Shown in pieces: positions 6,772-64,000 of a stretch of DNA of 64,000 bases. Location: positions 269,988 to 333,987 of the forward strand of contig JACIWX010000002.1 in NCBI GenBank assembly GCA_014360755.1. Direction: 5' to 3'. Source of the stretch: Chloroflexota bacterium (GTDB lineage: Bacteria > Chloroflexota > Anaerolineae > UBA2200). Position 1 is the first letter of the stretch. Each line of letters starts with the position of its first letter. The translations under genes were made by a program, and so were the position numbers. The notes under the pieces are model-generated. The model was not told where the DNA came from. It saw only the letters and a list, made by a program, of their open reading frames with translations, and did not search any database.

Positions 6772-6775
6772 CTGC

Positions 6776-7515: not shown

Positions 7516-7524
7516 ACCAAAGGT

Positions 7525-9540: not shown

Positions 9541-9542
9541 AA

Positions 9543-9567: not shown

Positions 9568-9587
9568 ACAAAGCGCCTACACGGTGG

Positions 9588-13898: not shown

Positions 13899-13916
13899 TG
13901 ATTCAGGCTACCCCTG

Positions 13917-13989
13917 TGGGCCCACCTGGATTCGAACCAGGGACGACCCGGTTATGAGCCGGGGGCTCTAACCACTGAGCTATGGGCCC
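13917..13989 (-). tRNA. tRNA-Met (CAU).
   Basis: Reverse complement GGGCCCATAGCTCAGTGGTTAGAGC...CTCATAACC...GGTTCGAATCC folds as a cloverleaf with anticodon CAT. Confidence 0.8.
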
Positions 13990-13994
13990 TTCAG

Positions 13995-14066
13995 AGCGGG
14001 TGACGGGACTCGAACCCGTGACAACCTACTTGGAAGGCAGGGGCTCTACCATCTGAGCTACACCCG
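13995..14066 (-). tRNA. tRNA-Gly (UCC).
   Basis: Reverse complement GCGGGTGTAGCTCAGATGGTAGAGC...CTTCCAA...GGTTCGAGTCC with anticodon TCC. Confidence 0.8.
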
Positions 14067-14102
14067 CATGGCCAGGCACCGCAGAACCCGTGCCTGGTGC
14101 TG

Positions 14103-14175
<73 letters not shown>

Positions 14176-27298: not shown

Positions 27299-27430
27299 AG
27301 TAATGGTGCAGAGAGCCGAGGATAGGTAAAGGGTAATGAGTGACGAGTGGGGAGTGAGGAGGCAAGACGGAGTACGCAACATGAAACAATCTCTTATGCT
27401 CGGTGCTCTCTAAATGAGAGGTGAACGAAT

Positions 27431-33178: not shown

Positions 33179-33568
33179 ATGGGCGGAATTTACGAAATCT
33201 TTCGTGAGGCATTGCCTGAAATCATTGCTGGGCTAGTCGTTGCAGCTATCCTTGCCCTTGTTGGTGTGGCGGTGCGTAAGCGTGCTAATAAGGTTGCCTC
33301 ATCCCATCAAAATGTACCCCCTTCTAGTCCACTCCCCTGTACAAAGCCCCAATCGAAGAAGAAAGAGAACGCAGAGTTGCTTGACCTAAAGCACCGTCGG
33401 CTGCATGAGCTCCAAAAGAAAAAAGCCCTTATGGGCATCAATACTCCACCCGAAGTGATGATCGAGATTGAGGAACTGGAGAAAGACATCCACGAGCTTG
33501 AAAGGATAGACCGCAATGGTTATGGGCGAAACGGGGAGCGAAGCACAAGAGCTCAAGGAGCTCATTGA
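33179..33568 (+). CDS. Small membrane-anchored protein carrying a copy of the shared ~50-aa helical module.
   Basis: N-terminal TM helix. C-terminal ELLDLKHRRLHELQKKKALMGINTPPEVMIEIEELEKDIHELE is homologous to the N-termini of the next two proteins. Overlaps the next gene by ~50 nt in another frame. Confidence 0.45.
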   Translation: MGGIYEIFREALPEIIAGLVVAAILALVGVAVRKRANKVASSHQNVPPSSPLPCTKPQSKKKENAELLDLKHRRLHELQKKKALMGINTPPEVMIEIEELEKDIHELERIDRNGYGRNGERSTRAQGAH

Positions 33569-35063
33569 GGCCTATCGCCGGCGGCTTCACAAGCTGCGTG
33601 TGCGTGTGGCTCTGATGGGCATAGATGCGCGGCCCGAGGATTTGATTGAGATCGAGGACATTGAAAAAAAACTCGCCGAGCTAGAAGAACAACTGAACCA
33701 TTTCGCAGCCATTCCGGTAGCGGGATGGAAAGTACCGGCAAAGGAGTTAGAGGGTCTCAGATACAAGCTAGACCGGCGCATTGGGGTCCTGGAGGCTTCC
33801 CTTCAGTATCTTACTGTTAGTTTACGCTTCTCGCCACGAGGAAAAGATAAGTATGAGGTCCTCTTGCAATCGGAAGTGGGCGATGTGGCCGATGAATTTG
33901 TCTTGCCCTTTACGGCTGATGAGGTTTTTCGTTTCAAATCCGAGGTGGAGAGGGCTATCCTGGCTCGTGGTAGCGGTTTCCGAGGGCAACTGCCTTCGGC
34001 TATGGAACGCCTCAAGGAGTTCGGCCTCAAGTTGTATAAAGGACTCCCCGAAGCTGTACGAGAGCGTTATCAGGCAGCTCGGGATAAGGCCGTTGCCGAG
34101 GGATATACTGGTGTGCGCTTGCGTTTGAATTTGACTGACTCACGTCTGGCAGCTGTCCCATGGGAGTTCCTATACGACCTCAAACGAGGAGAATTCCTCG
34201 GTCTCTCCGGGCAGACCCTTCTAGTGCGCTATGCCGAACTTCCTTACCCTCCTACACTGGGCCTTCACCCTCCTTTGAAGGTTCTGGTAGTAGCTCCTAA
34301 CCCAAGGGATTTGCCCCCTTTAGATGCGGAACAGGAGCACCAACGTGTTGAAGGGGCCTTGAAGGACCTGGAGGAAGCCGGACTGATTACTATCTATTGG
34401 TTAGGCTTGCCAAAACGACCTATCTCGCTGCAGACCCTGCATGATGCTTTATTCGCCTTTCGACCCCACCTGCTTCACTTTATTGGCCACGGCACGTTCG
34501 ATGAACAGCGCGGTGAGGGGGCTCTCTTTTTCGAGGACGAGAAGACTTTGCGAAAGGAACCGGTGAGCAGTTGGCGACTGGCCCAGTTGGCCACCAGTTC
34601 TGAGAGTTTGCGCCTGGTCTTTTTGAACGCTTGCAAAGGAGCCAAGACCTCGGAGGTTGAGAAACTGAGTAGCTTGGCTGCATCTTTGGCGCAGAAAGGC
34701 ATCCCGGCGGTTATTGGGATGCAGTTTACGGTCACTGACGAGGCAGCCATCGAGTTCTCCAGCAAATTCTACCAGCGGCTGGCCGAGGGGGCACCAGTCG
34801 ATGCCGCTGTGCAGGAGGGGCGTATCCATCTAGGAGTGGTGAGGGACAATCCTATGGAGTGGGCGGTACCGGTGCTTTACCTTCTGCCTAGCGACGGGAA
34901 ACTTTTTCAGATCTCAATGCTAGGAAAGGACAATGATGACAAAGAGCGTCTAGCCCGATTAATGATGGACATTGCAAGGGCTGCATGCGGCGCGGGCGTT
35001 CAGCTAGATTCTATGTTTTTTACAAAAATTATAGAGATTTTAGGCAGATGTCCTGAAAAATAA
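33516..35063 (+). CDS. CHAT-domain (caspase-like) protease with the N-terminal shared helical module.
   Basis: N-terminal ELKELIEAYRRRLHKLRVRVALMGIDARPEDLIEIEDIEKKLAELE. C-terminal caspase-like His/Cys dyad LLHFIGHGTF and LVFLNACKGA. CHAT-like block KVLVVAPNP. Confidence 0.7.
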   Translation: MVMGETGSEAQELKELIEAYRRRLHKLRVRVALMGIDARPEDLIEIEDIEKKLAELEEQLNHFAAIPVAGWKVPAKELEGLRYKLDRRIGVLEASLQYLTVSLRFSPRGKDKYEVLLQSEVGDVADEFVLPFTADEVFRFKSEVERAILARGSGFRGQLPSAMERLKEFGLKLYKGLPEAVRERYQAARDKAVAEGYTGVRLRLNLTDSRLAAVPWEFLYDLKRGEFLGLSGQTLLVRYAELPYPPTLGLHPPLKVLVVAPNPRDLPPLDAEQEHQRVEGALKDLEEAGLITIYWLGLPKRPISLQTLHDALFAFRPHLLHFIGHGTFDEQRGEGALFFEDEKTLRKEPVSSWRLAQLATSSESLRLVFLNACKGAKTSEVEKLSSLAASLAQKGIPAVIGMQFTVTDEAAIEFSSKFYQRLAEGAPVDAAVQEGRIHLGVVRDNPMEWAVPVLYLLPSDGKLFQISMLGKDNDDKERLARLMMDIARAACGAGVQLDSMFFTKIIEILGRCPEK

Positions 35064-35219
35064 CCCGTGTGCAACAGTGTACAGGTACTAGATCTAAATC
35101 TCATATTATACAAGGACTAAGGGCACATCAACTATAGAAGATAAAACCTCCTAACTGGACTCCTATAATTATCCTAACTTTTGCTCTTTGACCCTTGTCA
35201 AGGAAAGAGAGGACTGTAT

Positions 35220-36902
35220 ATGAGCGCAAATCAAAAGCCAGGGGAAGCAGAGCTAAAGAATTTGCAAGAGCTCATCGAAGCCCATAGGAAACGGCTACAC
35301 AAACTTCGTGTGCGCGTAGCTTTGCAAGGCATAGATGCCAAGCCTGAGGACTTAATTGAGGTCGAAAATATAGAGCGCCAACTCTCCGAGCTTGAGCGGA
35401 AAAAACAGATCCTCTATGAAACGATAAGCGGCCTGAGTAAAGATGAAATAAGCAAGGATACCACCGAGATAAAAGATTCATTAGCCACCCTTGAAGGGAA
35501 AATAGAGAACCTTGACAAGAGAACCTCCGAGCGAGGGGTGGGTTTCACCAATAGGCAATATGAATTGGATCAAATTCTTAGTCCTTTCAGCAAGCCGTTT
35601 ATTATCATTGATGCTCCCGCCAGCTATGGGAAGACCTACTTGCTTAGAGCTGTGGAGCGCAAGCTGCAGTCTGAGAGAAGAGAAGTGTGGATTTGCCGTT
35701 CAGTTGATTGCTATAGGTTTAACGATAAAACAGGGATTATGACGGAAATCACTGGCAGTACTGTGAATGACGTGAACAATCTCCTCCCATTGGTTGATAG
35801 GGCTATGGAAACTGCCAGGGCCAATGGCTTAATGTTACTCTTTGATTCCATTGAGCATCTTGACGATAAAGTTTCTCACTGGCTGAAGAAAAACCTAATA
35901 CCAGCGCTAAATAATTCCTCATCAAACAGGGGTCGCAAGTTTAGAGCTCTCTTCGCTGGCCGGTACGTTGGAACCTGGGAAGATGGTTTAGGTTTACCTC
36001 ATCTCACCTTAAGCCTCACACCCTTTAGCAAAAAGGTTGTACAAGCATTTGTTCAGGAAGTAGGAAAGCAATTACATTTTCACTGGTCTGATAGAGATCT
36101 CGACGTCTTTGTTGAAGAACTGCTTGATATAACGGGTGGGTATCCCAAGGCCATTGTGGACATAGTGGAACATCTGGGGGATGAGCAAAAATTCGACATG
36201 ATCCTAGATAGAGAGAGCCCTGACTACTATTTCCAGCTCAGTAGGAAGAAAGATTTCTATAACAGATTTGTCCGCGGAGAGATCCCAAAGATCCTACAGG
36301 AGGTCGATCTCGCCCTGCAAAGGGCATTTGAGGTCGTCAGCGTGTTCCGTGCTTTCAACGCGGATACTCTGAACGCTCTTATTATGAAAAGGCACATACG
36401 GGAGTGGAGCAATGGCTGGGAGCTCTTTGAGGCTATGCAAAAAAACCGCTTGATAGAGGAAAAAGCAAGGCATCCTCTTGCCTGCGACAAAATCCTCCAG
36501 CGTGTTCTGGCAGCCAAAATGAGATTTGAGGATCCTTCTCGCTATGAGGGGCTTCAGCATTTCGCTGTCGCCCTATACGATCGCTGGATTCAGGGATTGA
36601 AGTACCCAGACGGTGAGTTGCCCAATCCACCTACCGGGTCTGATCAAATAACTTTTATAATAGAAGCACTCTACCACTATCTTCATACAACTCAGGACGA
36701 AAGAGATATTTTGGGAAAGCTGGACAGTTACCTCAACTGGCTAAGATCCCCTTTTGACCCCCGTAGCGCGGCGCGAGCCTTGAAACGAGGCGTCGAGGAG
36801 GACGAACAGCTGCCGGGGATGCTTAAAAGAGCTATTGGAGATAACGGGTATGACAACTTTCTCAAACATATAGATCGCTTCGGGGAGGAGGGAAAGCGAT
36901 GA
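35220..36902 (+). CDS. STAND-type P-loop NTPase with the N-terminal shared helical module.
   Basis: N-terminal ELKNLQELIEAHRKRLHKLRVRVALQGIDAKPEDLIEVENIERQLSELE. Walker A DAPASYGKTYLL. Walker B LMLLFDS. GYPKAIV (GxP) motif. Confidence 0.65.
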   Translation: MSANQKPGEAELKNLQELIEAHRKRLHKLRVRVALQGIDAKPEDLIEVENIERQLSELERKKQILYETISGLSKDEISKDTTEIKDSLATLEGKIENLDKRTSERGVGFTNRQYELDQILSPFSKPFIIIDAPASYGKTYLLRAVERKLQSERREVWICRSVDCYRFNDKTGIMTEITGSTVNDVNNLLPLVDRAMETARANGLMLLFDSIEHLDDKVSHWLKKNLIPALNNSSSNRGRKFRALFAGRYVGTWEDGLGLPHLTLSLTPFSKKVVQAFVQEVGKQLHFHWSDRDLDVFVEELLDITGGYPKAIVDIVEHLGDEQKFDMILDRESPDYYFQLSRKKDFYNRFVRGEIPKILQEVDLALQRAFEVVSVFRAFNADTLNALIMKRHIREWSNGWELFEAMQKNRLIEEKARHPLACDKILQRVLAAKMRFEDPSRYEGLQHFAVALYDRWIQGLKYPDGELPNPPTGSDQITFIIEALYHYLHTTQDERDILGKLDSYLNWLRSPFDPRSAARALKRGVEEDEQLPGMLKRAIGDNGYDNFLKHIDRFGEEGKR

Positions 36903-39715
36903 ACGGCATCCATCCGTGGTTTGTTGACCGAGAGGAGGAACTGGAGCGTATCCGAGCGCATGTTGAGGCTTGGGATACCACTCGTATTCTGGTCATTGAT
37001 GGACCAGGCGGCGTTGGCAAAACCAGGCTTCTTGAAGAAGTCCATAGACAACGCCTAGCACATATAGAATTTCTGAGAGGTCAATCGATCACCACCGAGG
37101 TTATTAATCTTGCTGACGTTCGCTTCCAAATGCCCATGAACCTAGCGCGTCGGATTGCCCTGGAGCTTGATCCCCAGCGTTTCCAACACTACTTAGAAGA
37201 GACCGATCGCATCGTGCGCGAGGAGAGCAAGGGTCTTCTAACGTTGGAAGCCTTGGAGCGATATATACACGAAAGCGATAAACTCTTCCTCCAGGCTTAT
37301 AACGACATGGCCCGAGAGAAACGCGTTTTGCTCCTCATTGACACCGTGGAGGCTATCTTGTCCCTCCCCGTTGGGCGATATCTGGCAAAGATAGTGTCTC
37401 AACTGAAGAACACCTGTGTGCTGATAGCCGGCCGGGAAGGGATGAGGGCAAAAGAACTGATCGAACAAGCACTGAAGCGAACACAACAGCAGGCGAGCGT
37501 CATCCTTGATTACCTCCTTTTGAAAAACTTCAAACCTGAAACCTCGGCTGAATATCTGGATAAAACCCCTGTGAAAGGCTATTTGGAAGCGCATCCTCGC
37601 CTTCGCCAGAACCTTTTGTTTCTAACGGAAGGAAAACCATTGCTGCTGGCCCTTGCTGTGGAATGGCTCCTGCGCGATATGCCGTTGCCGGAGTTATTGA
37701 AACAAACCCCAAAGAAACTACAAGCCTTAGGAGACAAAGAGAAGAAAGACCTGAGGGAGCGTTTCGAGGCGGCTCTAATAACTCATATCCGCTATCTCAG
37801 AGATCCCGGCGGTGACTTGATCCTTGACATGGCCCATCTCTATTACCGCTTCGACCCCGAGGTACTGTCAGCCATTACAGGGTGGCCTGAGGAAAAGAGC
37901 CAAGAGCAACTTAGCAGGATGAGGAGAGACCTTTTCTTTGTCAAGGCTAAGCCAGGAGACATCCTGGTCTTGCACGATGAAGTGGCCAGATTGGTACGGG
38001 AATATGTCTGGCCGCAACTGGATCCTTTTGGCACCAGGCGGCAGGAACTCAGTCGGATGGCGGTTGAGCATTACCGGAATAGGCTGGAACGGCTGGAAAA
38101 GAGAATGCAAGAAGCACAGGAAGAGGCGTTGAAAGCAGAGGAGAAAGGAAACCTTGCTAAAGCCAGCGAGGCCTGGAGATGTTGGGCAGAAAAGCGGCGC
38201 GAGCAATGGGTGCTGGTCCAAGAACTCCTTCACTATACTTTGGAGGTGGATCTAAAGGCTGGATATAATCTCTTTGTAGAGAAATTCGATCAGGCTACAG
38301 ATAAATATCAGCTTCTTCTCCGTTCGCCTTTAGTAGAAGAGATTGCGAATTATGAGGAAAAGTTTGCAGGAGACGAGAAGTACGAGGTTGGTATTCGAAT
38401 TGCCAAGTGCCTCCTGGACGAGACAGAATATCAGGATGCCTATGAGAAAGCAAAAGCCCTATTAGAAGCCTTTCCCTATCAGGATCATCGTCGTGTGGAT
38501 ACCATCATCCAGTTAGCCAATAATGCTGCCCGCATGGGTCGTCTAGAGGAAGGGCGTCAATACTTTGAGGAAGCGTTAAGACTTTGTAAAGAATACCAAC
38601 TTCCGGACAAGAAATGGTGGGCTATGGCTGAAAATGGGCTGGGGTGGGCTTATCGCGTCCTTGGTCAGTGGGACGAAGCCATTCAGCATTGGCAAACAGC
38701 ATTGGATTATAGCGTTGAAGTTGGCGATCGCAAGCGGATGGCTAGCATTTTGAACAACCTTGGATACGTGTATCATCTTAAAGGGGGTAGCCGAAGCGGT
38801 CTGGCGCTCAGCCAGCAAGCATTGGAAATTGCCCAATCTCTAGGCTTTGGACGACAAATCGCCATGAATCACAGTACTTTAGGAGAGATCCATTTAGCTT
38901 TGGACCGGTACGAGGAAGCGTTTGCCCATTACAGAGAGGCACTGGCCCTCTTTGAAGGGGAAAGAGACGAGGAGTGGATGGCCATCGTATATCATGAACT
39001 CTCCCGCGCCAAACGCCACCAGGCTTTTGATGAAGAGGAAACACCAATCCGACAACAAAAAGAGCGGCTTGAAGAAGCCCTTCGATACGCTGAGCGAAGC
39101 TTACAGCTCTGTACAGATTACCATCTCTCGAAAGAGCTCCCAGCTGCATATTATGGAATAGGAAGCATAGAGGCAGATTTAGGTCAGATTGAGAAAGCGA
39201 AGAGCTATTTACAGGAAAGCTACAATCTAAATAAAGAACGAGGGGAACTTTTTGGTCTCATGGTCGATCTCGCTGCTTTGGCAGAGCTGGCCTATATGGA
39301 GCAAGACATGGAAAAAGTCAGAGAACTAGCACAAGAAGCCCGGCAATTGCAATCTACAGGGGGTGGAAAAGTTCCGGCTAATTATCCCCTGTTCTTTGGC
39401 AGAACGCTGCGTACCCTTGCTGAAGCCTATTTAGAGCAGAAAAATTACGAGCAAGCCTTGGATACCTACATTGAGGCTTTAACCCACATCGGGCGCCATG
39501 GTGGCTATGGGAAATATCGCTTCGACCGTGAGCTAAAGAAACTACGCAAAAGAATGAGCGAAGTTCCGTCAGAAATTAGGGCAAGTTGGTGCGAGCGCTT
39601 TATTAAACAATGGCAAGCTAAACCAGACCTAGCTAGGGAGCATCCTGAGGTAATCACAACTTGCTTGTTGGTCAAGTGGAGTGCCTGTCATAATATAGGC
39701 GCAGAAAGGGAATAG
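36899..39715 (+). CDS. STAND (NB-ARC-like) NTPase with C-terminal TPR repeats.
   Basis: FVDREEELERI...ILVIDGPGGVGKTRLL Walker A. VLLLIDTVEA Walker B. EGKPLLLAL motif. More than 8 TPR-like repeats in the C-terminal half. 4-nt overlap with the upstream gene. Confidence 0.8.
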   Translation: MNGIHPWFVDREEELERIRAHVEAWDTTRILVIDGPGGVGKTRLLEEVHRQRLAHIEFLRGQSITTEVINLADVRFQMPMNLARRIALELDPQRFQHYLEETDRIVREESKGLLTLEALERYIHESDKLFLQAYNDMAREKRVLLLIDTVEAILSLPVGRYLAKIVSQLKNTCVLIAGREGMRAKELIEQALKRTQQQASVILDYLLLKNFKPETSAEYLDKTPVKGYLEAHPRLRQNLLFLTEGKPLLLALAVEWLLRDMPLPELLKQTPKKLQALGDKEKKDLRERFEAALITHIRYLRDPGGDLILDMAHLYYRFDPEVLSAITGWPEEKSQEQLSRMRRDLFFVKAKPGDILVLHDEVARLVREYVWPQLDPFGTRRQELSRMAVEHYRNRLERLEKRMQEAQEEALKAEEKGNLAKASEAWRCWAEKRREQWVLVQELLHYTLEVDLKAGYNLFVEKFDQATDKYQLLLRSPLVEEIANYEEKFAGDEKYEVGIRIAKCLLDETEYQDAYEKAKALLEAFPYQDHRRVDTIIQLANNAARMGRLEEGRQYFEEALRLCKEYQLPDKKWWAMAENGLGWAYRVLGQWDEAIQHWQTALDYSVEVGDRKRMASILNNLGYVYHLKGGSRSGLALSQQALEIAQSLGFGRQIAMNHSTLGEIHLALDRYEEAFAHYREALALFEGERDEEWMAIVYHELSRAKRHQAFDEEETPIRQQKERLEEALRYAERSLQLCTDYHLSKELPAAYYGIGSIEADLGQIEKAKSYLQESYNLNKERGELFGLMVDLAALAELAYMEQDMEKVRELAQEARQLQSTGGGKVPANYPLFFGRTLRTLAEAYLEQKNYEQALDTYIEALTHIGRHGGYGKYRFDRELKKLRKRMSEVPSEIRASWCERFIKQWQAKPDLAREHPEVITTCLLVKWSACHNIGAERE

Positions 39716-39720
39716 CCTTC

Positions 39721-40851
39721 ATGATCCAAACTAATATTTCATCTCCATTCAAGGGAACACTTTCACAACAATTATTTACGGAAATCGATAGGCAATGCGA
39801 TTGTGCATGTCTCGAACCAGATCTGTTCATTTCCTGTCTCCCTGCCCATCCGATTTTCTGCTACGTTGAAGTTACCCCTGTTTGTAATAATCTTTGCCTT
39901 GGGTGCGGAAACATTTTCAGGGCCGATAGAACCTCGCCACCGCTTTCATCCGCAGAATGGCAAACTGTTTTGACTAGCTTACAACCTTTTGTTCATTATC
40001 TCAAACTCACTGGGGGCGAACCGACGCTGCACCCAGAGTTCGAAACCATTATCCGAACAGTTCAGGAAAAAGACATCCCCTTCGCGCTTTTCACCAACGC
40101 CAGATGGAATGCCCCAGAACGACTCATCGCGCTTCTGCAAAGTACCACACAATGTAGAGGCTTGCTTGTTTCTTTGCATGGCGCAACGGCTGCTTCTCAT
40201 GATGCTTTTACGGGAGTTATGGGCTCTTTTAGTGACACTTGCAGCAATATCAAACGAGCCGCCTTCGCTGGCCTGGATGTCAGAACGAGCACTGTCATCA
40301 CCAAATATAACTGGCAAGAGATCGACACAATCGCCACTCTAAGTCAGAGCTTAGGGGCTCACTGTGCTGTATTCAACCGCTACATAGGGCCTCCTTTGCC
40401 CGAGCTAGAACCTAGCAAAGAACAATTGCAGCATGCAATTGGAGTAATCGAATATATGAGGCGGAACCTAACAAATAACCAACAATCAATGGTCGAATTC
40501 GGAAATCATATTCCTTATTGCCTCTATCCTTCCTCTTCTGCTGCTTGCCTTGCAGGGATCGCTTATTGCACTGTTGACCCCTGGGGCAATGTGCGGCCTT
40601 GTAATCATGCTCCACTGATCTGTGGCAATTTACTAGTGCAGTCACTGGAGGAGATATGGCGTTCGGAGACAATGGAAGCATGGCGAAAAATGATCCCTAT
40701 GGAGTGCGCTGGGTGCGCATTATACCAGACTTGCCATGGAGGGTGTCGAGCTGAGGTGATGCTACGTAACGCCTCTAATTATTACTCACTAACCAACAAA
40801 TCACACCGGTCTACGCTGCCTACCGAAGCAAGAGTACTTCAAATTGGATAA
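39721..40851 (+). CDS. Radical SAM/SPASM-domain protein with no N-terminal RRE, last gene of the island operon.
   Basis: CNNLCLGC CX3CX2C cluster. LTGGEPTL. C-terminal SPASM Cys cluster CTVDPWGNVRPC...CAGCALYQTCHGGC. 5-nt gap after the STAND-TPR gene. Confidence 0.8.
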   Translation: MIQTNISSPFKGTLSQQLFTEIDRQCDCACLEPDLFISCLPAHPIFCYVEVTPVCNNLCLGCGNIFRADRTSPPLSSAEWQTVLTSLQPFVHYLKLTGGEPTLHPEFETIIRTVQEKDIPFALFTNARWNAPERLIALLQSTTQCRGLLVSLHGATAASHDAFTGVMGSFSDTCSNIKRAAFAGLDVRTSTVITKYNWQEIDTIATLSQSLGAHCAVFNRYIGPPLPELEPSKEQLQHAIGVIEYMRRNLTNNQQSMVEFGNHIPYCLYPSSSAACLAGIAYCTVDPWGNVRPCNHAPLICGNLLVQSLEEIWRSETMEAWRKMIPMECAGCALYQTCHGGCRAEVMLRNASNYYSLTNKSHRSTLPTEARVLQIG

Positions 40852-50325: not shown

Positions 50326-53300
50326 ATGAGTAAGGGGGAGACGGTGGGGTCTTCGTTCGCGCACTTACATGTGCATACGGAGTATTCTCTCCTTGATGGC
50401 ATGTGCAAGATCAAGGACCTCGTTGCCCGCGCCAAAGAGTTGGGCATGGAGGCACTAGCGATCACCGATCATGGCGCGATGTATGGTGCAATAGAATTCT
50501 ACCAGGAAGCACAGCAAGCCGGCATCAAACCAATTATCGGCTGCGAAGTGTACCTGGCACCAAAAAGCAGGCTTAAGCATACTCCGCGGGCAGAAGCCCG
50601 GCTGTTCCATTTGATCCTCCTAGCCAAGAACGAAACTGGTTACAAGAACCTGATTCAGTTGACGACCAAAGCCCATTTAGAAGGGTTCTATTACAAGCCT
50701 CGGGTCGACAAAGAGCTTTTACAGGAACATCGTGACGGGCTCATTGCCCTCTCTGCTTGCGTTTCAGGAGAGATCCCTCGCTTAATCCAAGACGGCCAAA
50801 TAGACGCTGCACGAGATGCCATACGCTGGTATCAAGATGTCTTTGGCCCAGAAAATTTCTATCTCGAATTGCAGCGGCATGTAGCCATGCCCGAAATAGA
50901 AACGACAAACCAAGCTTTGTTGGCATTAAGCCGTGAACTGGGTGCAAAAATCGTCGCCACAAATGACGTCCATTATATCCGCCAGGACGATGCTGCTGCC
51001 CATGAAGTCCTGCTGTGCATTCAGACCAACACGACAATGGATGACCCAGACCGCTTACGCATGGGGGGTGACGATTTCTACTTGAAAAGCGAACAGGAAA
51101 TGGCTGCGTTGTTCGCCGACGTACCGGAGGCACTCACCAATACCCTACGCGTCGTATCCGAATGCACATTCGAACTGAAGAATGAGGGCTTCCATCTACC
51201 CGCTTTTGAGGTGCCCCCGGGCTACACCGCCCAGACCTATCTCGCGCACCTCTGCGAAGAAGGCCTGCAAAAACGGTATTCACTGATTACCCCGGAATTG
51301 CGCGCGCGGCTGGACCACGAACTGAAAATCATCCATGAAATGAATTTTGACATCTACTTCCTGATCGTCTGGGATTTGATTCGCTTTGCCAAGAGCCGAG
51401 ATATCCCCTGGAATGTGCGCGGCTCCGCTGCTGCCAGTATCGTGGCGTATTCCTTGGGACTGACCAATCTGGAACCACTTCGCCATGGCCTTATTTTTGA
51501 GCGGTTTCTCAACCCTGGCCGCATCACAATGCCGGATATTGACCTGGATTTCCCGGATGATCGCCGCAATGAGATGATTGAATACGTCATCCAAAAGTAT
51601 GGCAGCGACCGGGTTGCGCAGATCATCACCTTTGGCACCATGGCTGCACGCGCCGCCATTCACCATGTAGGGCGAGCACTAGGCCTTCCACCGGGAGAAG
51701 TCGTGCGTCTGGCTAAGCTGGTGCCTCCTGGCATAAAGATCAAAATACAGGATGCCCTAGAAGCTTCACAAGACTTGCGTGTCATTTACGAACAAGATGA
51801 CTATATACGCAACCTGATTGACAAAGCCCGTCAGCTTGAGGGGGTTGCACACCATATTTCCACGCATGCGGCTGGCATTGTCATCGCGGATAAGCCGTTG
51901 GTGGAATATGTGCCTGTGCAACATATCCCGAGAGGCAAAGAAATTATCACGCAGTATCCTATGGGGGCTCTGGAAGACATCGGCTTGTTGAAAATAGATT
52001 TCCTGGGCCTCTCTACCCTGACGATCATGCGACGCGCGGTGGATTTGATCAACGCTCGTCACGGCACTGCTTTTCGCTTGGATAACATCCCTACGGACGA
52101 TCCCGCTATCTATGAATTGCTCTCGACTGGCAACGTGATCGGTCTGTTCCAGGTCGAAGGAGCAGGGATGCGCCGCGTACTACAAGAGTTGCAACCTTCC
52201 AATTTTGAGGACGTAGTTGCTCTCCTTTCCCTTTACCGCCCTGGGCCCATGCAGTTTATAGACAGCTATGTGGCGCGCAAATACGGCCGAGAAAAAGTGG
52301 AATACATCCACCCTAGCCTGGAACCCATACTGCGCGAGACGTATGGCATTATCGTCTATCAAGAGCAAATTATCCGCATCGCAACAGATATCGCGGGTTA
52401 CACCAGCGCTGAAGCCGATTTGATGCGTCGAGCCGTGGGCAAGAAAAAGGAGAAGGAGCTCAAGGAACAGCGGGACAAATTTGTGCAGGGTGCCGTGGAA
52501 CGCGGCTTGCCCAGAGACAAGGCTGAGGAGATCTTCTCAGCCATTGAGTACTTTGCCAACTATGGCTTCAACAAAGCCCATAGCGCAGCCTATGCCGTGA
52601 TCACCTGCCAGACAGCTTACCTCAAGGCGCATTACCCTGTTGAGTATATGACCGCCTTGCTCTCGGTGGAGCGCAATAATAGCGAGAAAATTGCCACCCT
52701 TGTGGCAGAATGCCGCCGTCTGGGCATTGAGGTACTCCCTCCAGATATAAACCGCAGTGAGCTCGATTTTACAATAGAAGATATCCCTGTCCCCAAAGGG
52801 CAGCCACAAGATCAGGCGCAAACCCACCGCCCAGCAATCCGCTTTGGCTTAGGGGCGATCAAAAATGTGGGTGAAGGTCCGGTGCAAACCATCTTGCAGG
52901 CACGCGCTGCTCAGGGACCTTTCACCAGCGTGGCTGACTTTTGCCGACGTGTGGACCTGCGACAGATCAACAAACGCGCTTTGGAATGCCTCATCAAAGC
53001 AGGAGCGATGGATTCCCTGGCGGAAAGAGCTCGCCTGCTAGCCATCATTGATCGTATGCTGGGGCTCAGCCATCTGCACCACCAAGCCAGCGCGGTTGGG
53101 CAACTGGCATTCGATGCCTTATATACACGCTCTTCTGGTGATGCTGACCTCATGGCAGATCATGTGTTTGTCCCACCCGTTTCGCAAAAGGAAAAACTTG
53201 CCTGGGAGAAAGAACTCCTGGGAACCTATGTATCCGATCATCCACTACAACGCCTTGTGCAAAATGCCTGGGAGCCCCGCCAGAACAAGTTGTACACACC

Positions 53301-53862
53301 GCTCGATCAAATTGATGAATCGCTCAAAGGTCATACGGCCATCGTAGCGGGTAGGGTGATTAGATCTCGCCCGACAACAACGCGCAAAGGCGAAGAAATG
53401 GCGTTTGTCGAACTGGAAGACTTGAGCGGCAGCATAGATGTTGTCATTTTCCCCAAGGCATACAAGCAATGCAAAGAATTGCTGGTGGAGGACCAGTTGC
53501 TCGAAGTAGAGGGGAAGGTAGATATACGCAACGGAAAGGCTCAGATTGTTGGAGATACGGTACTGGATTACGCTCTGGCAAATTCGCGCAAGAACAATGT
53601 AGCACCTCGTGCGCATCTACTCGAAATCAACCTCCACTGCAGTGGTAATCGTGAACATGATATACAGTTGTTGCGGAAAGTGTACCAGATTTTGGAAGGA
53701 CACCCGGGCCCAGATCGCTTTCGCTTCAACATTATCAGCGAACAAGGACGCGTACAACTGGAATTTCCCAATGCGACCACGAATTTTGTACCGGAGTTGG
53801 AAGCACAGCTTAAGGAAACACTGGGTGAAAACGCACTCTATGTGCAATGGATAGAAGCATGA
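50326..53862 (+). CDS. dnaE: DNA polymerase III alpha subunit.
   Basis: PHP domain FAHLHVHTEYSLLDG. 1178 aa. Polymerase core and OB-fold C-terminus. Confidence 0.95.
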   Translation: MSKGETVGSSFAHLHVHTEYSLLDGMCKIKDLVARAKELGMEALAITDHGAMYGAIEFYQEAQQAGIKPIIGCEVYLAPKSRLKHTPRAEARLFHLILLAKNETGYKNLIQLTTKAHLEGFYYKPRVDKELLQEHRDGLIALSACVSGEIPRLIQDGQIDAARDAIRWYQDVFGPENFYLELQRHVAMPEIETTNQALLALSRELGAKIVATNDVHYIRQDDAAAHEVLLCIQTNTTMDDPDRLRMGGDDFYLKSEQEMAALFADVPEALTNTLRVVSECTFELKNEGFHLPAFEVPPGYTAQTYLAHLCEEGLQKRYSLITPELRARLDHELKIIHEMNFDIYFLIVWDLIRFAKSRDIPWNVRGSAAASIVAYSLGLTNLEPLRHGLIFERFLNPGRITMPDIDLDFPDDRRNEMIEYVIQKYGSDRVAQIITFGTMAARAAIHHVGRALGLPPGEVVRLAKLVPPGIKIKIQDALEASQDLRVIYEQDDYIRNLIDKARQLEGVAHHISTHAAGIVIADKPLVEYVPVQHIPRGKEIITQYPMGALEDIGLLKIDFLGLSTLTIMRRAVDLINARHGTAFRLDNIPTDDPAIYELLSTGNVIGLFQVEGAGMRRVLQELQPSNFEDVVALLSLYRPGPMQFIDSYVARKYGREKVEYIHPSLEPILRETYGIIVYQEQIIRIATDIAGYTSAEADLMRRAVGKKKEKELKEQRDKFVQGAVERGLPRDKAEEIFSAIEYFANYGFNKAHSAAYAVITCQTAYLKAHYPVEYMTALLSVERNNSEKIATLVAECRRLGIEVLPPDINRSELDFTIEDIPVPKGQPQDQAQTHRPAIRFGLGAIKNVGEGPVQTILQARAAQGPFTSVADFCRRVDLRQINKRALECLIKAGAMDSLAERARLLAIIDRMLGLSHLHHQASAVGQLAFDALYTRSSGDADLMADHVFVPPVSQKEKLAWEKELLGTYVSDHPLQRLVQNAWEPRQNKLYTPLDQIDESLKGHTAIVAGRVIRSRPTTTRKGEEMAFVELEDLSGSIDVVIFPKAYKQCKELLVEDQLLEVEGKVDIRNGKAQIVGDTVLDYALANSRKNNVAPRAHLLEINLHCSGNREHDIQLLRKVYQILEGHPGPDRFRFNIISEQGRVQLEFPNATTNFVPELEAQLKETLGENALYVQWIEA

Positions 53863-56800
53863 CGAATCAACAAGCGCTGCATAAAGCCGTCGCGATATTG
53901 CTGCCCATTGCCATAGCCCTCCTACTGGTCGGGTTTGCTATTACCCTATGCATGCCTAATGAGCAAACTTCCACCATTGCCACCTGGAAACAGACGCAGG
54001 GACCAAGCGGCGGCAAGATCAACGCGTTATTGCTTGATGAGCGCAATCCTGGCCTGATTTATGCCGCTACAGATGGCGGCATCTATGTCAGCCAGGATGG
54101 GGGAAACGAATGGAAGCACACAAGCAAAGATTTGCCCGCAGGTCAAGAGATCATGACATTGGCTATGGCTCAACACCCCACACAGACCATATATGCTGGT
54201 ACTTATAACGGTGTGTATCACAGCACCGATGGCGGTCAAACTTGGTTGCCGCCTACTGCAGGCCTAACCCATAGCCCTGTTTTTTCCTTGGCAGTTGACC
54301 CTGAAAACAGCGCCAATGTATATGCAGGTACAGATAGACAAGTTTTCAAGAGCCTGGACGGGGGCAATACCTGGGCTGCGAGCAGCGAAGGGCTGCCTGA
54401 AGAAACGATCTGGGCTTTGGCCATAGACCATGCCTCGCCGAATATCCTGTACGCGGGCACGGACAGCGGCGTATTTAAAAGCACAGACTATGGTGAGCAT
54501 TGGCAACACGCCAGCACCAACATGCCAGCCAGGTTGCGTGTACAGGCTCTGGCTATTGATCCCATTGTCCCAACTATCCTCTACGCAGCCACGGAGGCAG
54601 GCGTTTATCGCAGCAACGACGGCGCAGCGACCTGGCAGGTTGCTACCGGGGGCATCGGTGAGATGATCGTCCACGCCTTAGTGATTGACCCTAACAATCC
54701 CCGCACTTTGTACGCAGCAGTGGGTGCGCAAGGCATATGGCAAAGCACCAACAGCGGGGAAACTTGGGCACCTGTCCCTGGCAACATAGAGGAGTTGGTC
54801 CTTGCGCTGGCTATCCATCCTGTGCACTCCGAGGTCATGTATGCAGGCACTGGGCGCGGTGTGTATTACACGAGCACAGGGGGTCAGCATTGGGAACCCA
54901 AAAATAAAGGTTTAATCAGCACCAATGTCTTATTGCTAGTAACGGTTCCAGAACGCCCAGGACATCTGTATGCCATCACGGGACTGGATGTATTCAAGAC
55001 AACCGATGATGGCAACACCTGGGTCTCTCTGAATCAGGGCTTGGCTAACCCCAATGTGCTAGCGCTGGCTGTAGACCCTGCTTCTCCTGATACCCTGTAC
55101 GCAGGCACTTGGTATGGCGAAATCTACCGCAGTGCTGACGGCGGCCAAAGCTGGTGGCGAGTGAACGCTGGCTTGGCTCGTGACGCACCTATTAGTGCAC
55201 TGGTCATCCATCACTCAGGCAGGACGAACCCTGGTGATCAGCCTTCGAGTGTGCTCTACGCAGGCACCAATGGAGCAGGGGTTTTCTATAGTACTGATGG
55301 TGGCATCCATTGGACGAGCGCCAGCGATGGATTGGCAAATCTTTACGTGCAGACACTGGCTTTTGCGCCTACTAAGGAAGGAATCCTCTACGCTGGAACA
55401 AGCAAAGGCCTTTACCGTGTAAAGTTAACCGGCAGATTGTCCCCCGATGGACTTCGTTGGGAAGCCTTGCAAAATGGGTTTGCCCAAGATGAAGTGCACA
55501 GCATCGTCATTGATGGGCGCTCCCCTAACGTGATTTATGCAGCAACGGCGATGGGAATTGGTGAAGTGTACTGTTCAACGGATGGGGGAGACCATTGGAC
55601 TGCGATAGGCAGGGGTTCGTTGCCCACCAACATCAAGATCCAAGCATTAGCACTCAACTCTTATCGTGGAAAGCCGCGCATTGTGTATGCTAGCACAGAT
55701 GGGGGGATATTTCGCAGTGAGGATGGCGGATTCAACTGGCGCGCCATTAACGAGGGCCTGCCGCCACGCGCCAATGTGCTGGCACTGCTAGTAGATGCCA
55801 AACGTTGCTACCTATACGCCAGTATCAAGAACAATGGCATTTACAGCACATTAGATAAAGGTTCAGGCCTTGCCACCTGGCGCCTTATCGTGGCGGGGAT
55901 ATTGAGTGCAGCCGCACTGGCGATTATCCTCTTTACCATTCAGGGACAGATCCAGGTCGCTAAGCAAACTCAAGACCAACTTTTCGAGCGCAACTGGCCA
56001 TTGTGGAGAGAGGAAATTGAACGCATTCTGCGCGACCAAAACGCCGTCACGATGGAAACACTAGCCCAAGTGCCTAGCCCCTTTAGGCTTCGCGCTATGC
56101 AACAATACATGCAAGAACAAGGGGAGGACAACCTTGTGCTACGTTTGAATCCTCCTGTGCTGGAGCCAGCCAACTCAATGCTGGTGGGTAATTTCTTGCG
56201 CAATTGGCGCGCTGCGCAGAGGAGGGCAAAGAATGCGATCGCTTTCAAGCCGATCGTCTCACGTATCACCGATCAGTTATGCCAGTTGCTCGGATTTACC
56301 CTCCTAGAGACCCGCTCTTACAAAGAACTTCATGCTTATGTAATCAAAGCGCCTGCTTTGCGTCTGAAAATGCCTCCCATGTTTCCTCTTATCTTCCTCC
56401 AAAAGCCCAACCTCACCGAGCAGGATATCCACGATCTGCATGATTTAATGAGCATTCTCAATGTTGCCAGTTATCTCGCCTTGCTCGTGCTCCCAGATAG
56501 CCGTACTAGCCAAGAACCCTCTGAGGCAAAGATGTTGCTCAAGAAATTGACCCATGGGACTGCCTATGATTTCATCGCGATGGATTTTGACGACCTGCAC
56601 CGTATCTTTGTGGCAAAGAATCCAGAAAAGAGATTTATCCGCATCCTGCTTTCACAGGTAGATTTGACTGTGGTGTCGCCTTACGTGATATCGGGCCCCG
56701 TGCCCGAAAACATGTTCTTCGGTCGAGACCATGAATTAAAGACTATTACACGCATGATCAAGGACAATAACTTTGCCATTGTCGGTGGACGGAAAATCGG

Positions 56801-57755
56801 CAAGAGTTCCATCCTACACAAACTCCACCGCTTCTTTACAGATGCACCAGAGCACTATTCCCTATACCTGGATTGCCAAGCAGTACAAGATTATCAAGAC
56901 CTATGTAACACCATAGAGGCCATGTGGCAGGTCGCTCTACCTGATCGCTCGCCAGAAGCCTTGATGCGCTTAATGGCACGGATAAAGCGAGAGCACGAGG
57001 AACAAATCATCGTCATCCTACTGGATGAAGTAGATGCCCTCCTTCAGTATGATGCCCTGAACCAGGAACGGCTCTTCAAAGTATTCCGAGCCCTTACTCA
57101 AGAGCAATACTGCCGCTTTGTACTCTGTGGTGGCAAGGTCCTTTATGCAAGCTTGCATAATCCCAACTCGGCCCTTTTCAACTTCTGCAATGCGATCCGC
57201 CTAAGTTATCTGACCCCTCGAGACACAGGCCGTATTGTTATGGAGCCCATGCAAGAAATGGGCATTGGCTTCGAGGATGCTAGCAAATTGGTACAAGGCG
57301 TCATCAATCTCTCCGCCTGCCACCCCAATCTCGTACAGTATATCTGCCAGGAATTGATCATCCGCATCAATGCACGCGGTAATCGCTTTATCACCCTCGC
57401 GGATTTGGAAGCCATTGGGAATTCAAGGCAGTTCAATGAGTACTTGATCGAGGTCATGTGGGGCAATACAACAGCGCTGGAACGCCTGATCACGCTGCTA
57501 ATCATGGTAGACACACCTCATGCAACGCTCACTGAGATTGAGGCAGCACTACACGCGAGGGGAGTACAGGTTCCTTCGGCTGCAGTGGAAAAGGCATTGG
57601 AAACCTTGGTTCTCTATTCGATCCTTCACCAAGAAGGAGAAGAATACTGCTTCACCGCCCCAGCGTTTCCTTCTATTGTCGCTGCTACACAGGACATGGA
57701 TTCGCTGGTGGAAAGGACGATTCAATATCTCAGCACTGAGACGATAACTACCTAA
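53859..57755 (+). CDS. Large single-pass membrane protein. Extracellular multi-blade BNR/Ycf48-like β-propeller repeats, one TM, and a cytoplasmic STAND/AAA-type P-loop NTPase.
   Basis: About 14 repeats of YAGT..G[VI][YF].S.DGG..W. TM LIVAGILSAAALAIILFTI at ~aa 680. FFGRDHELKTI...FAIVGGRKIGKSSILHKL Walker A. IIVILLDEVDAL Walker B. ATGA overlap with the dnaE stop. Confidence 0.7.
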   Translation: MTNQQALHKAVAILLPIAIALLLVGFAITLCMPNEQTSTIATWKQTQGPSGGKINALLLDERNPGLIYAATDGGIYVSQDGGNEWKHTSKDLPAGQEIMTLAMAQHPTQTIYAGTYNGVYHSTDGGQTWLPPTAGLTHSPVFSLAVDPENSANVYAGTDRQVFKSLDGGNTWAASSEGLPEETIWALAIDHASPNILYAGTDSGVFKSTDYGEHWQHASTNMPARLRVQALAIDPIVPTILYAATEAGVYRSNDGAATWQVATGGIGEMIVHALVIDPNNPRTLYAAVGAQGIWQSTNSGETWAPVPGNIEELVLALAIHPVHSEVMYAGTGRGVYYTSTGGQHWEPKNKGLISTNVLLLVTVPERPGHLYAITGLDVFKTTDDGNTWVSLNQGLANPNVLALAVDPASPDTLYAGTWYGEIYRSADGGQSWWRVNAGLARDAPISALVIHHSGRTNPGDQPSSVLYAGTNGAGVFYSTDGGIHWTSASDGLANLYVQTLAFAPTKEGILYAGTSKGLYRVKLTGRLSPDGLRWEALQNGFAQDEVHSIVIDGRSPNVIYAATAMGIGEVYCSTDGGDHWTAIGRGSLPTNIKIQALALNSYRGKPRIVYASTDGGIFRSEDGGFNWRAINEGLPPRANVLALLVDAKRCYLYASIKNNGIYSTLDKGSGLATWRLIVAGILSAAALAIILFTIQGQIQVAKQTQDQLFERNWPLWREEIERILRDQNAVTMETLAQVPSPFRLRAMQQYMQEQGEDNLVLRLNPPVLEPANSMLVGNFLRNWRAAQRRAKNAIAFKPIVSRITDQLCQLLGFTLLETRSYKELHAYVIKAPALRLKMPPMFPLIFLQKPNLTEQDIHDLHDLMSILNVASYLALLVLPDSRTSQEPSEAKMLLKKLTHGTAYDFIAMDFDDLHRIFVAKNPEKRFIRILLSQVDLTVVSPYVISGPVPENMFFGRDHELKTITRMIKDNNFAIVGGRKIGKSSILHKLHRFFTDAPEHYSLYLDCQAVQDYQDLCNTIEAMWQVALPDRSPEALMRLMARIKREHEEQIIVILLDEVDALLQYDALNQERLFKVFRALTQEQYCRFVLCGGKVLYASLHNPNSALFNFCNAIRLSYLTPRDTGRIVMEPMQEMGIGFEDASKLVQGVINLSACHPNLVQYICQELIIRINARGNRFITLADLEAIGNSRQFNEYLIEVMWGNTTALERLITLLIMVDTPHATLTEIEAALHARGVQVPSAAVEKALETLVLYSILHQEGEEYCFTAPAFPSIVAATQDMDSLVERTIQYLSTETITT

Positions 57756-57773: not shown

Positions 57774-58559
57774 ATGGATTACCAAAACATTCTCGTAACG
57801 CGCGAAGAGGACATTGCCATTATCACTTTCAACCGACCCAAAGTCCTCAATGCACTGAACCGTGCGACGATGGCTGAGCTATCGGCGGCTATAGATGAAC
57901 TGGCGAGCGACGAGAACGTGCGGTGTATCATCCTCACTGGTGCCGGGGAGAAGGCTTTTGTTGCCGGAGCGGATATCCGTGAATTACAGGCTATCGAGAG
58001 CGCGGCGGAGGGGGCCGCATTTGCCGCCCAAGGCCAGAGTATCCTGTTCAAGATCGAGAACCTCAGCAAACCCGTCCTCGCTGCCATCAATGGCTACGCA
58101 TTAGGTGGCGGATGTGAACTAGCCATGGCGTGCGATATCCGCATTGCCGCAGACACAGCAAAACTTGGACAGCCTGAGATTAACCTGGGCATCATACCGG
58201 GCTATGGTGGCACACAAAGGCTCCCCCGGCTGGTGGGAAAAGGATATGCCAAGTGGTTAATCCTCAGTGGCGATATGATCTCTGCTCAGGAGGCTTTGCG
58301 CATCGGCTTGGTCGAGATGGTGGTCCCAGCAGAGGAACTGATGGCCAAAGCACGGGAATTAGCCCATAGGATCGCGCGCAAAGCTCCGCTGGCAGTTGCC
58401 TGCGCCAAGACAAGTATCAATGTGGGTTCAGAGACCGATTTGGGTACAGGTTGTGCGTACGAAGCCAGCCAATTTGGCTTGGTCTGTGCCACGGAGGACC
58501 GCGTTGAGGGCACAACGGCTTTCCTGGAGAAGCGCCCGGCGCAGTTCAAAGGCAAGTAA
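57774..58559 (+). CDS. Enoyl-CoA hydratase/isomerase (crotonase) family protein.
   Basis: FVAGADI and oxyanion-hole GGGCELAMACD motifs. Confidence 0.85.
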   Translation: MDYQNILVTREEDIAIITFNRPKVLNALNRATMAELSAAIDELASDENVRCIILTGAGEKAFVAGADIRELQAIESAAEGAAFAAQGQSILFKIENLSKPVLAAINGYALGGGCELAMACDIRIAADTAKLGQPEINLGIIPGYGGTQRLPRLVGKGYAKWLILSGDMISAQEALRIGLVEMVVPAEELMAKARELAHRIARKAPLAVACAKTSINVGSETDLGTGCAYEASQFGLVCATEDRVEGTTAFLEKRPAQFKGK

Positions 58560-63496: not shown

Positions 63497-63569
<73 letters not shown>

Positions 63570-63574
63570 TGTGG

Positions 63575-63646
63575 GCGGAAGTGGCTCAGCGGTAGAGCAT
63601 CTCCTTGCCAAGGAGAGGGTCGCGGGTTCGAATCCCGTCTTCCGCT
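63575..63646 (+). tRNA. tRNA-Gly (GCC).
   Basis: GCGGAAGTGGCTCAGCGGTAGAGC...TTGCCAA...GGTTCGAATCC. Confidence 0.8.
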
Positions 63647-63725
63647 TCAGCACGATGCAGAGCGCCAAGTGAGGGCAGTATATATCCCTCCGCGTTCTCG
63701 GCGTGCTCTGCGGTAAGATTTTCCA

Positions 63726-63797
63726 GGCGACGTAGCCAAGTGGTTAAGGCAGGGGTCTGCAAAATCCCGATCGTCGGTTCAATTCCGACCGTCGCCT
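63726..63797 (+). tRNA. tRNA-Cys (GCA).
   Basis: GGCGACGTAGCCAAGTGGTTAAGGC...CTGCAAA...GGTTCAATTCC. Confidence 0.75.
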
Positions 63798-63841
63798 CTC
63801 TGTGCGGTGGCTGATAGCATACGCTATCAGCCCTTTGCTTT

Positions 63842-63925
63842 GGGGCGGTGGCGAAACGGCAGACGCTGCGGACTTAAAATCCGCTGGACGTTGAGTCCAT
63901 GAGGGTTCGATTCCCTCCCGCCCTA
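63842..63925 (+). tRNA. tRNA-Leu (UAA), long variable arm.
   Basis: GGGGCGGTGGCGAAACGGCAGACGC...CTTAAAA...extended variable arm...GGTTCGATTCC. Confidence 0.7.
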
Positions 63926-64000
63926 TGGAACATTTCCGCCTGATGGCACATTCTTGATCAAGCCCAAATCACCGGTGCGGGCTGCCTCCAGAATGGGTGC

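Follow-up and report, generated by a model that had tools for sequence, protein, structure and literature searches.

In a 64-kb window of a Chloroflexota contig (JACIWX010000002.1; by window we mean the whole stretch of DNA analysed), the gene directly 3′ of dnaE encodes a protein in which Asp-box propeller repeats, a transmembrane (TM) helix and a STAND-type P-loop NTPase follow one another in a single open reading frame (ORF). With moderate confidence, we read this protein as a bitopic, receptor-shaped transmembrane-STAND sensor. As for its history, we give even weight to the view that a conflict-system STAND was turned into a vertically inherited surface sensor, a domesticated gene and not a mobile defence gene. 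To our knowledge, STAND/NLR switches are cytosolic sensors, and extracytoplasmic sensing across a membrane is normally carried out by histidine kinases and chemoreceptors. Here, a STAND switch appears to be wired across the membrane to an extracytoplasmic ligand-binding domain; if this is true, transmembrane signalling can have NLR-type oligomerisation as its output. The receptor-like layout had been proposed in an earlier reading made from the sequence alone (the sequence-only reading), and it is borne out by the ORF, the Pfam matches, the hydropathy, the repeat count and the motifs.

Architecture of the propeller-TM-STAND protein

The target ORF extends from 53859 to 57755 on the + strand (1298 amino acids (aa) and a TAA stop), in a frame that is open without interruption from 53847/53859 through 57755. 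From ATG 53859, its product is exactly NCBI entry MBC7232543.1 (1298 aa), which comes from a Chloroflexi metagenome-assembled genome and is annotated merely as 'AAA family ATPase'. An alternative start, ATG 53847, gives 1302 aa. The sequence-only reading had proposed this longer form, which fits that start only and was absent from the protein collection searched; the public annotation uses 53859.

The region of residues ~40–665 matches Pfam Sortilin-Vps10 (E 5e-37) and PSII_BNR. It holds 14 repeats of ~43–47 aa each, ten with a strict Asp-box [ST]x[DN]xGxx[WFY] and four degenerate, and the count together with the Pfam matches agrees with the 14-blade BNR/Ycf48-type propeller proposed earlier. 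Repeats 1–7 (residues 36–346, 53964–54896, + strand) would form a first 7-bladed BNR/Sortilin-type propeller outside the cytoplasm and repeats 8–14 (residues 347–675, 54897–55883, + strand) a second one. Two 7-bladed propellers are the most likely arrangement of the 14 blades because ectodomains of half size in certain relatives (L033, L034 and P0094–P0100) consist of a single unit of ~7 repeats, and because the best sequence matches of the ectodomain in the PDB are the GH74 tandem-propeller xyloglucanases and Ycf48. The target shares with Ycf48/HCF136 and GH74 the BNR/Asp-box repeat type and the 7-blade unit, in GH74 as a tandem of 7+7, but it is not orthologous to either. Orthology to Ycf48 was rejected: the NF010237 equivalog model, which has a cutoff of 326 bits, gives only 77.5, and the target, with its 14 repeats, also contains a TM helix and an ATPase.

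The GH74 likeness raises the possibility that the tandem propellers are a membrane-anchored GH74-like glycoside hydrolase or glycan remodeller, regulated or localised by the ATPase. We consider this very improbable. The NCBIfam model 'F510_1955 family glycosylhydrolase' scores 257 bits, above its cutoff of 175, but it draws this score from nine matches at the level of repeats, with a profile of 246 residues. Likewise, repeat type and number fit GH74, but the PDB alignments are repeat-level only and out of register, blade to blade, and are therefore silent on catalytic residues. Genes for a GT4 glycosyltransferase, a sugar acetyltransferase, a phosphoglucomutase (PGM) and a PMT_2-type glycosyltransferase lie in the neighbourhood, as such an enzyme might lead one to expect, but these sugar-related neighbours are common to close relatives only. 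Moreover, the ectodomain is replaced by nothing, by Reg_prop repeats or by one propeller while the cytoplasmic module stays, and an ectodomain that can be swapped fits a sensor better than an enzyme.

Two hydrophobic segments border the propellers. The first, residues 10–32 (53886–53954, + strand; Kyte-Doolittle peak 2.9), is a putative signal-anchor or uncleaved signal peptide, and an equivalent segment is found ahead of the Asp-box propellers in most full-length orthologues. The second, TM2, covers residues 676–696 (55884–55946, + strand; peak 2.7). The 'single TM' of the sequence-only reading is thus correct as regards the helix at 676–696 and not as regards its being the only one; since hydropathy shows two segments, the description becomes signal-anchor plus TM. 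The spacing from TM to Walker A is constant (275–297 residues) in nearly all Chloroflexi relatives, and lysine and arginine (K/R) are richer C-terminal to the TM helix in most of them, in one case with none before it and 5 behind it; the soluble outgroups lack a TM. The fixed spacing and the charge bias speak for a module in the cytoplasm and an N-terminal part outside it. A topology with N-terminus in, propellers out and NTPase in is therefore supported, and the placing of propeller and NTPase on opposite sides of the membrane is upheld by these two features together with the N-terminal hydrophobic segment.

On the cytoplasmic side, a juxtamembrane stalk (residues 697–727, 55947–56039, + strand) carries the conserved motif NWPxWxxEI, in which W716 is invariant and W713 nearly so (at least 90%). 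In an AlphaFold model of the cytoplasmic part (m87c11f676749), built from a 44-sequence alignment with a mean predicted local distance difference test (pLDDT) of 87.7, TM2 runs on as a continuous 56-residue helix (model residues 2–57) that forms the stalk.

Between stalk and NTPase lies a domain that the sequence-only reading had overlooked (residues 728–935, 56040–56663, + strand). Modelled separately, its 208 residues (pLDDT 89.9) are predicted to hold the α-β-β-β-α-β core of restriction endonucleases, preceded by a small winged-helix-like part, and its structural matches include the nuclease domains of FokI, NucC, HamA and LlaBIII. Column conservation revealed no conserved acidic residue and no (D/E)xK on the expected core strands (second and third), where V-V-K is likely a relic. 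The only conserved residues are E817 (84% acidic), R819, K830 and D904. The window protein has M841 and S881 at positions where 89–91% of relatives have basic (mostly R) and acidic (mostly D) residues, respectively. The domain is probably non-catalytic, as judged from these columns, though an active site that has migrated is possible.

Avs3/Avs4-type antiviral STANDs carry an N-terminal nuclease effector of restriction-endonuclease fold (SeAvs3, PDB 8dgc). The target resembles them in having such a fold directly N-terminal to its STAND NTPase, and differs by lacking the canonical catalytic motif and a C-terminal TPR sensor, by its membrane anchoring and by giving no Avs match in PADLOC. A suicide nuclease of this kind, in which STAND oligomerisation would let an active FokI-like effector cut DNA at the membrane, would be consistent with the structural matches and with the conservation of E817, R819, K830 and D904. 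The missing acidic residue and (D/E)xK, and the replacements at M841 and S881, argue against it; in addition, one would hardly expect a suicide nuclease to be encoded by a constitutive, vertically inherited gene of a dnaE operon. An active FokI-type nuclease, for which no canonical motif was found, survives only as an alternative to which we assign a very low probability.

The nuclease-fold domain is joined to the NTPase by a linker, LSQVDLTVVSPYVISGPVPENMFFGR (residues 931–956, 56649–56726, + strand), of near-invariant columns. It is predicted to be flexible, with pLDDT <50 (model residues 267–278) despite its near-invariance across the family, and may be a docking or autoinhibitory segment.

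The STAND-type NTPase domain (residues 953–1119, 56715–57215, + strand) starts with FFGRDHEL (953–960) and carries Walker A GGRKIGKSS (976–984, 56784–56810, + strand) and Walker B VILLDEVD (1052–1059, 57012–57035, + strand), so that all the P-loop motifs claimed before are present. Nor are they degenerate in orthologues: Walker A, as GGR[KR]IGK[TS]S, was found in 45/45 sequences and Walker B, as hhLLDE[VIA]D, in 44/45. These intact motifs suggest an active NTPase. A helical lid domain follows, delimited from the secondary structure of the model (residues 1120–1201, 57216–57461, + strand). It includes the invariant CHPNLVQ, whose invariant H and P would be the counterpart of the STAND GxP motif. 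A winged helix (residues 1206–1265, 57474–57653, + strand) and two C-terminal helices to 57752 complete the protein.

Residues 951–1193 match Pfam AAA_22, nSTAND1, TniB and AAA_16. nSTAND1 (PF20703) is matched only in part (profile positions 14–260 of 379) and barely above threshold (30.8 bits, cutoff 27.1), and 26/35 long relatives match this family too. The best structural matches of the NTPase part are archaeal PF01637 ATPases, plant NLRs and CED-4. The order of NTPase, helical domain and winged helix (NOD-HD-WHD) is that of STAND proteins, and by predicted fold and motifs the cytoplasmic NTPase is a STAND close to the PF01637 and nSTAND1 families. It departs from the classical layout, a repeat sensor (TPR, WD40 or LRR) at the C-terminus and an effector at the N-terminus, by having no C-terminal repeat sensor: the protein ends 33 residues past the winged helix, and its sole repeat domain is N-terminal and extracytoplasmic. 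The closest switches are the PF01637/nSTAND1-type STANDs (Pyrococcus PAB2304, PDB 2qen; Sulfolobus SSO1545, PDB 2fna) and NLR/Apaf-1/CED-4. Compared with them, the target has its variable domain at the N-terminus and across the membrane, a nuclease fold between TM and NTPase, and an identity of only 10–18% to solved structures.

The C-terminal module, its N-terminal variants and the AAA_35 partner

Residues 697–1298 used as query gave 239 matches at E <= 1e-5 in the protein database; the best 120 of the 239 were all <1e-100 and came mostly from Chloroflexota/Anaerolineae. A profile search of 1.84 billion representatives returned 1285 clusters (50% identity) at E <= 1e-30. The 600-aa module is invariably C-terminal and is preceded by anything from no residue to ~1450 residues. 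From these alignments, the conserved core of the family is the cytoplasmic module and not the propeller, and the N-terminal regions are interchangeable. Membrane forms carry a bare TM helix, a tail of 60–90 residues plus a TM, or TIR plus TM hairpins. Propeller forms have one 7-repeat propeller, 14 repeats, or Reg_prop propellers, a type that Pfam names after two-component regulators and that stands in place of BNR in 6/35 long relatives. Other relatives have DUF1294 or the soluble Tubulin_2, PNP_UDP plus RAMP, NACHT, CHAT, caspase and HEAT.

To examine gene contexts, one genome per GTDB species was scanned, which gave 80 loci (designated L), 47 of them with a clear homologue. The fused propeller-TM-module ORF (1214–1411 aa) is the commonest form, present in ~31 of the 47. 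Forming >20 clusters at 50% identity, it is not rare within Anaerolineae, contrary to the 'uncommon design' of the sequence-only reading. 'Short' homologues of 640–700 aa were considered as the norm and rejected: they are a minority clade among the genome loci, though dominant in the protein-database matches.

In 23 of the 47 loci the next gene on the same strand encodes an AAA_35 (PF14516) NTPase (for example L004:9742-11379, L041:9760-11403, L021:3407-5680 and L029:9766-11604). This partner is present in every soluble outgroup and in the dnaE-linked loci L006, L029 and L050. Its C-terminal part varies between a CAP12/Pycsar-type TIR, a class III (guanylate-cyclase) cyclase, DUF4062 and CHAT, and is a TM-loop-TM module in the propeller clade. 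Its NTPase is paralogous to that of the target (hidden Markov model (HMM) E 1.7e-15; GHPYLTQ versus CHPNLVQ), with a Walker B in all and a Walker A match in most. From its gene order, the family would normally work in pairs of genes, the second encoding a paralogue with an effector, and paired NTPases with swappable effectors are a typical conflict-system arrangement. As a side observation, one relative, P0121 (1522 aa), appears to have two tandem P-loop NTPase regions, AAA_22/AAA_16 at ~663–812 and ATPase_2/nSTAND1 at ~1181–1408, and could be a fused form of a two-NTPase pair.

Operons in which two paralogous STAND NTPases come together with variable effectors have been described as nSTAND2 systems, where one of the two NTPases is eroded (Kaur et al. 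2021, PMC8195603). The loci related to ours are alike in holding adjacent paralogous NTPases, one with a swappable TIR, CHAT or cyclase, and a hetero-oligomeric switch as in nSTAND2 systems would be expected for them. They differ in that the pair is nSTAND1-like plus AAA_35 and both NTPases appear active from their motifs. The Anaerolineae branch, moreover, is membrane-embedded and chromosomally fixed, and the window has the first gene only. There, an enoyl-CoA hydratase gene (57774–58559, + strand) fills the slot held by the AAA_35 partner in the 23 related loci. It starts 18 nucleotides (nt) 3′ of the target, behind a strong Shine-Dalgarno sequence (GGGAGGA), and is probably on the same transcript. 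The partner is also missing beside the gene in the closest relatives (L001, L002 and L012). Within the 64-kb window, tblastn and HMM searches with the 23 partners yielded nothing beyond the NTPase of the target itself and an unrelated CHAT gene (33516–35063), and no paralogue of the cytoplasmic module came up with an HMM built from it.

One alternative casts the target as a sensor for immunity or conflict: it would form the membrane arm of a two-NTPase system of the abortive-infection type, with the partner encoded at some other place in the genome. Outside the cell it would detect a phage adsorbing, damage to the envelope or a molecule of a competitor, and it would then activate a TIR, CHAT, cyclase or membrane effector by forming a hetero-oligomer with the AAA_35 paralogue. 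We regard this as possible but rather unlikely. It is favoured by the effector-bearing partner downstream in 23/47 loci, dnaE-linked ones included, by the TIR, CHAT, caspase, PNP or NACHT fused N-terminally in some relatives, by weak matches to PADLOC PDC-S27 and Pfam nSTAND1, and by the published precedent of paralogous STAND operons with effectors (PMC8195603). Against it, no partner adjoins the gene or occurs in the window, L001, L002 and L012 being likewise without an adjoining one, and there is no defence island around. A scan of viral contigs with the family profile found no relative, and a phage origin was rejected. Membership of a known defence system was also rejected, PADLOC-DB v2 having given only a partial PDC-S27 match (30–33 bits, profile positions 4–154 of 484).

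Linkage to dnaE, inheritance and selection

The gene upstream of the target (50326–53862, + strand) has the Pfam domains PHP, DNA_pol3_alpha, finger, HHH_6 and OB. It scores 1417 bits with NF005298 (cutoff 1260) and 745 bits with the model of the error-prone DnaE2 (cutoff 939); by these scores it is a full-length replicative DnaE, the alpha subunit of DNA polymerase III. The dnaE stop codon (53860–53862) and the target ATG at 53859 share an ATGA (53859–53862, + strand), read directly in the sequence as the sequence-only reading had stated. This overlap suggests translational coupling of the two genes. Consensus scans for an internal promoter or terminator between dnaE, target and hydratase never rose above shuffled expectation.

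Conservation of the linkage had been left to a survey of orthologues, and the answer is positive. dnaE is directly upstream and on the same strand in 19 related loci; those recorded as linked are L001, L002, L006, L008, L012, L016, L020, L029–L037, L045 and L050. The gap to the first in-frame start codon ranges from -142 to +273 nt, with ATGA or short overlaps in several lineages and a junction identical to ours in L001, L002, L012 and L016. The dnaE genes of the 19 linked loci are only 50–58% identical. Since the genes 5′ of dnaE and 3′ of the target belong to many different clusters across these loci, dnaE–target is the only conserved adjacency. In a neighbour-joining tree the linked members are basal and paraphyletic, and the link has been lost in two derived clades. 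On this comparison of sequences, the linkage is genuine and represents the ancestral state.

Pairwise DnaE identities correlate with those of the module (Mantel r 0.79, 0/2000 permutations), which argues for vertical co-inheritance of the two genes. Against the L012 orthologue (87% identical), the ratio of nonsynonymous to synonymous substitution (dN/dS) is highest, at 0.077, in the ectodomain and falls to 0.067 in the nuclease fold, 0.049 in the NTPase and 0.040 in the part made up of lid and winged helix. Purifying selection is therefore strong and uniform over the domains, with no sign of an arms-race surface. These data also bear on the immune sensor discussed above: its ectodomain is under purifying and not diversifying selection, and the gene keeps a stable chromosomal position and has diverged together with dnaE.

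We also observed a context of its own in a dnaE-unlinked clade (L009, L011, L017, L018, L022, L025, L028 and L040). A divergent gene of ~350 aa lies directly upstream in 8/8 loci, beyond it comes a gene for an S1-domain protein in L011, L018, L022, L028 and L040, and further on a ClpC-like gene in L011, L018, L028 and L040; the labels S1-domain and ClpC-like were given by reading translated sequences and not by a family scan. This conserved context indicates stable chromosomal inheritance in that clade too.

The linkage invites a role in replication. As a membrane-tethered ORC/Cdc6-like ATPase with DNA-related domains, co-translated with DnaE, the target could couple envelope or extracellular status to the replisome, or anchor replicating DNA at the membrane, in filamentous bacteria. 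The adjacency in 19 loci outlasts all other neighbours, shows ATGA or short overlaps and goes with co-divergence of the two genes. A profile search matches human Cdc6 (E 3.6e-7), some databases label relatives 'orc1/cdc6 family', and the predicted restriction-endonuclease-like and winged-helix domains could bind DNA. The TIGR02928 score, however, is 19 bits against a cutoff of 181, the two derived clades and all outgroups without the dnaE link keep the module intact, and none of the partner effectors (TIR, CHAT, cyclase) is a replication factor. We therefore hold this role to be improbable. An ORC/Cdc6 or Hda identity as such was rejected (~19 bits against cutoffs of 181–195, and a fold nearer to STAND proteins): since the NTPase part is a STAND-type NTPase followed by helical domain and winged helix, it is not an initiator-clade AAA+.

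Some of this returns in a more speculative form of the receptor reading, which we would hold to be a long shot. In it, the target would be an outside-in STAND receptor that has kept its place in the dnaE operon of filamentous Anaerolineae over hundreds of millions of years because its output is directed at DNA or at the replisome. Through its nuclease-fold and winged-helix domains, tethered to the membrane, chromosome replication would be made to respond to the state of the cell surface or of neighbouring cells, an equally doubtful addition.

A possible signalling mechanism and the surroundings of the gene

The Anaerolineae branch of the family gained a membrane anchor and propellers, settled 3′ of dnaE and has been vertically inherited since, in the lineage of the window with no partner close by. 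For the surface sensor that we favour, the following scheme can be proposed. The ligand of the two propellers would be found on the surface or outside the cell and would most probably be a glycan or a component of the envelope. Its binding would be relayed by TM2 and the stalk and would free the nuclease-fold domain and the linker from the NTPase, which would then exchange ADP for ATP and oligomerise at the inner face of the membrane. As an output platform, the oligomer might recruit an effector-bearing paralogue encoded elsewhere or, alternatively, engage DNA through its nuclease-fold and winged-helix domains. Co-transcription with dnaE, asserted in the sequence-only reading, probably keeps the target expressed constitutively, at levels like those of the replisome; it may also have some functional connection with replication.

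The outer half of this scheme has a parallel. Bacteroides hybrid two-component sensors (Reg_prop/Y_Y_Y type, for example BT4663) have periplasmic tandem β-propellers. The target is similar in its two putative 7-bladed propellers outside, flanked by membrane segments, and its signalling module in the cytoplasm, and some of its relatives use Reg_prop propellers as the Bacteroides sensors do. It differs in its output, a STAND ATPase in place of a histidine kinase/response regulator, and in its BNR/Sortilin propellers, so the analogy is one of design only. In the literature found on nSTAND1, PF14516 and transmembrane or periplasmic STANDs, whose coverage is incomplete, neither a propeller-TM-STAND receptor nor the dnaE linkage is described. 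The TM segments mentioned in the literature on nSTAND1 and conflict systems and in a 2026 STAND phylogeny belong only to effectors or to other contexts.

Several points weigh against the sensor reading. Many relatives have a bare TM anchor without ectodomain, so an external sensor is not indispensable to the core, and the role of the propellers might be that of an anchor or of an enzyme. Oligomerisation and signalling across the membrane are suggested by analogy, the two-propeller arrangement by repeats and sequence likeness, and the topology by hydropathy and charge counts; the K/R bias in the window protein itself is weak (2 before and 1 after, in the 15 residues around TM2). Given the immune or conflict hallmarks of the wider family, the label 'domesticated' may be mistaken, and the 482-kb contig may encode a partner elsewhere. 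Finally, a pure surface-sensor model leaves the fixed dnaE linkage without explanation. The conserved, often translationally coupled pairing with a replicative polymerase is a directly testable puzzle, and the family shows how, within one bacterial class, a conflict-system module was taken over, given a membrane anchor and established among the core genes of the chromosome.

The surroundings of the target are chromosomal housekeeping genes and not a defence island. Besides the sugar-related genes mentioned above, its neighbours encode a prephenate dehydrogenase, a PrsA-type peptidyl-prolyl isomerase (PPIase), FtsH, FeoB, ClpB and UvrC.

A second STAND-type island lies at 33516–40851 on the + strand of the window. 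It comprises the stand-alone CHAT/HetF-like protease gene at 33516–35063, whose CHAT domain is 32–33% identical to the partner CHAT effectors of L021, L027 and L038, a P-loop AAA_22 protein (35181–36902), a 938-aa STAND(ATPase_2/AAA_16)-TPR protein (36899–39715) whose start overlaps the preceding stop, and a radical SAM/SPASM enzyme (39721–40851), all on the + strand. Another radical SAM protein, a peptide-maturase-like PqqD-radical SAM-SPASM fusion (4104–5597), is flanked, in the region 2322–11474, by genes for DUF2207 membrane proteins at 2322–4073 (+ strand) and 9588–11474 (- strand) and for an InhA-like MAM-domain protein at 7525–9540. Two adjacent full-length genes for ClpB/ClpC-type double-AAA+ chaperones (863 and 828 aa) occupy 24707–29917 (+ strand). 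An Rfam scan of the window returned tRNAs only. One tRNA cluster, Met-Gly-Pro, is at 13916–14175 (- strand), and another, Phe-Gly-Cys-Leu, at 63497–63926 (+ strand), at the end of the window.

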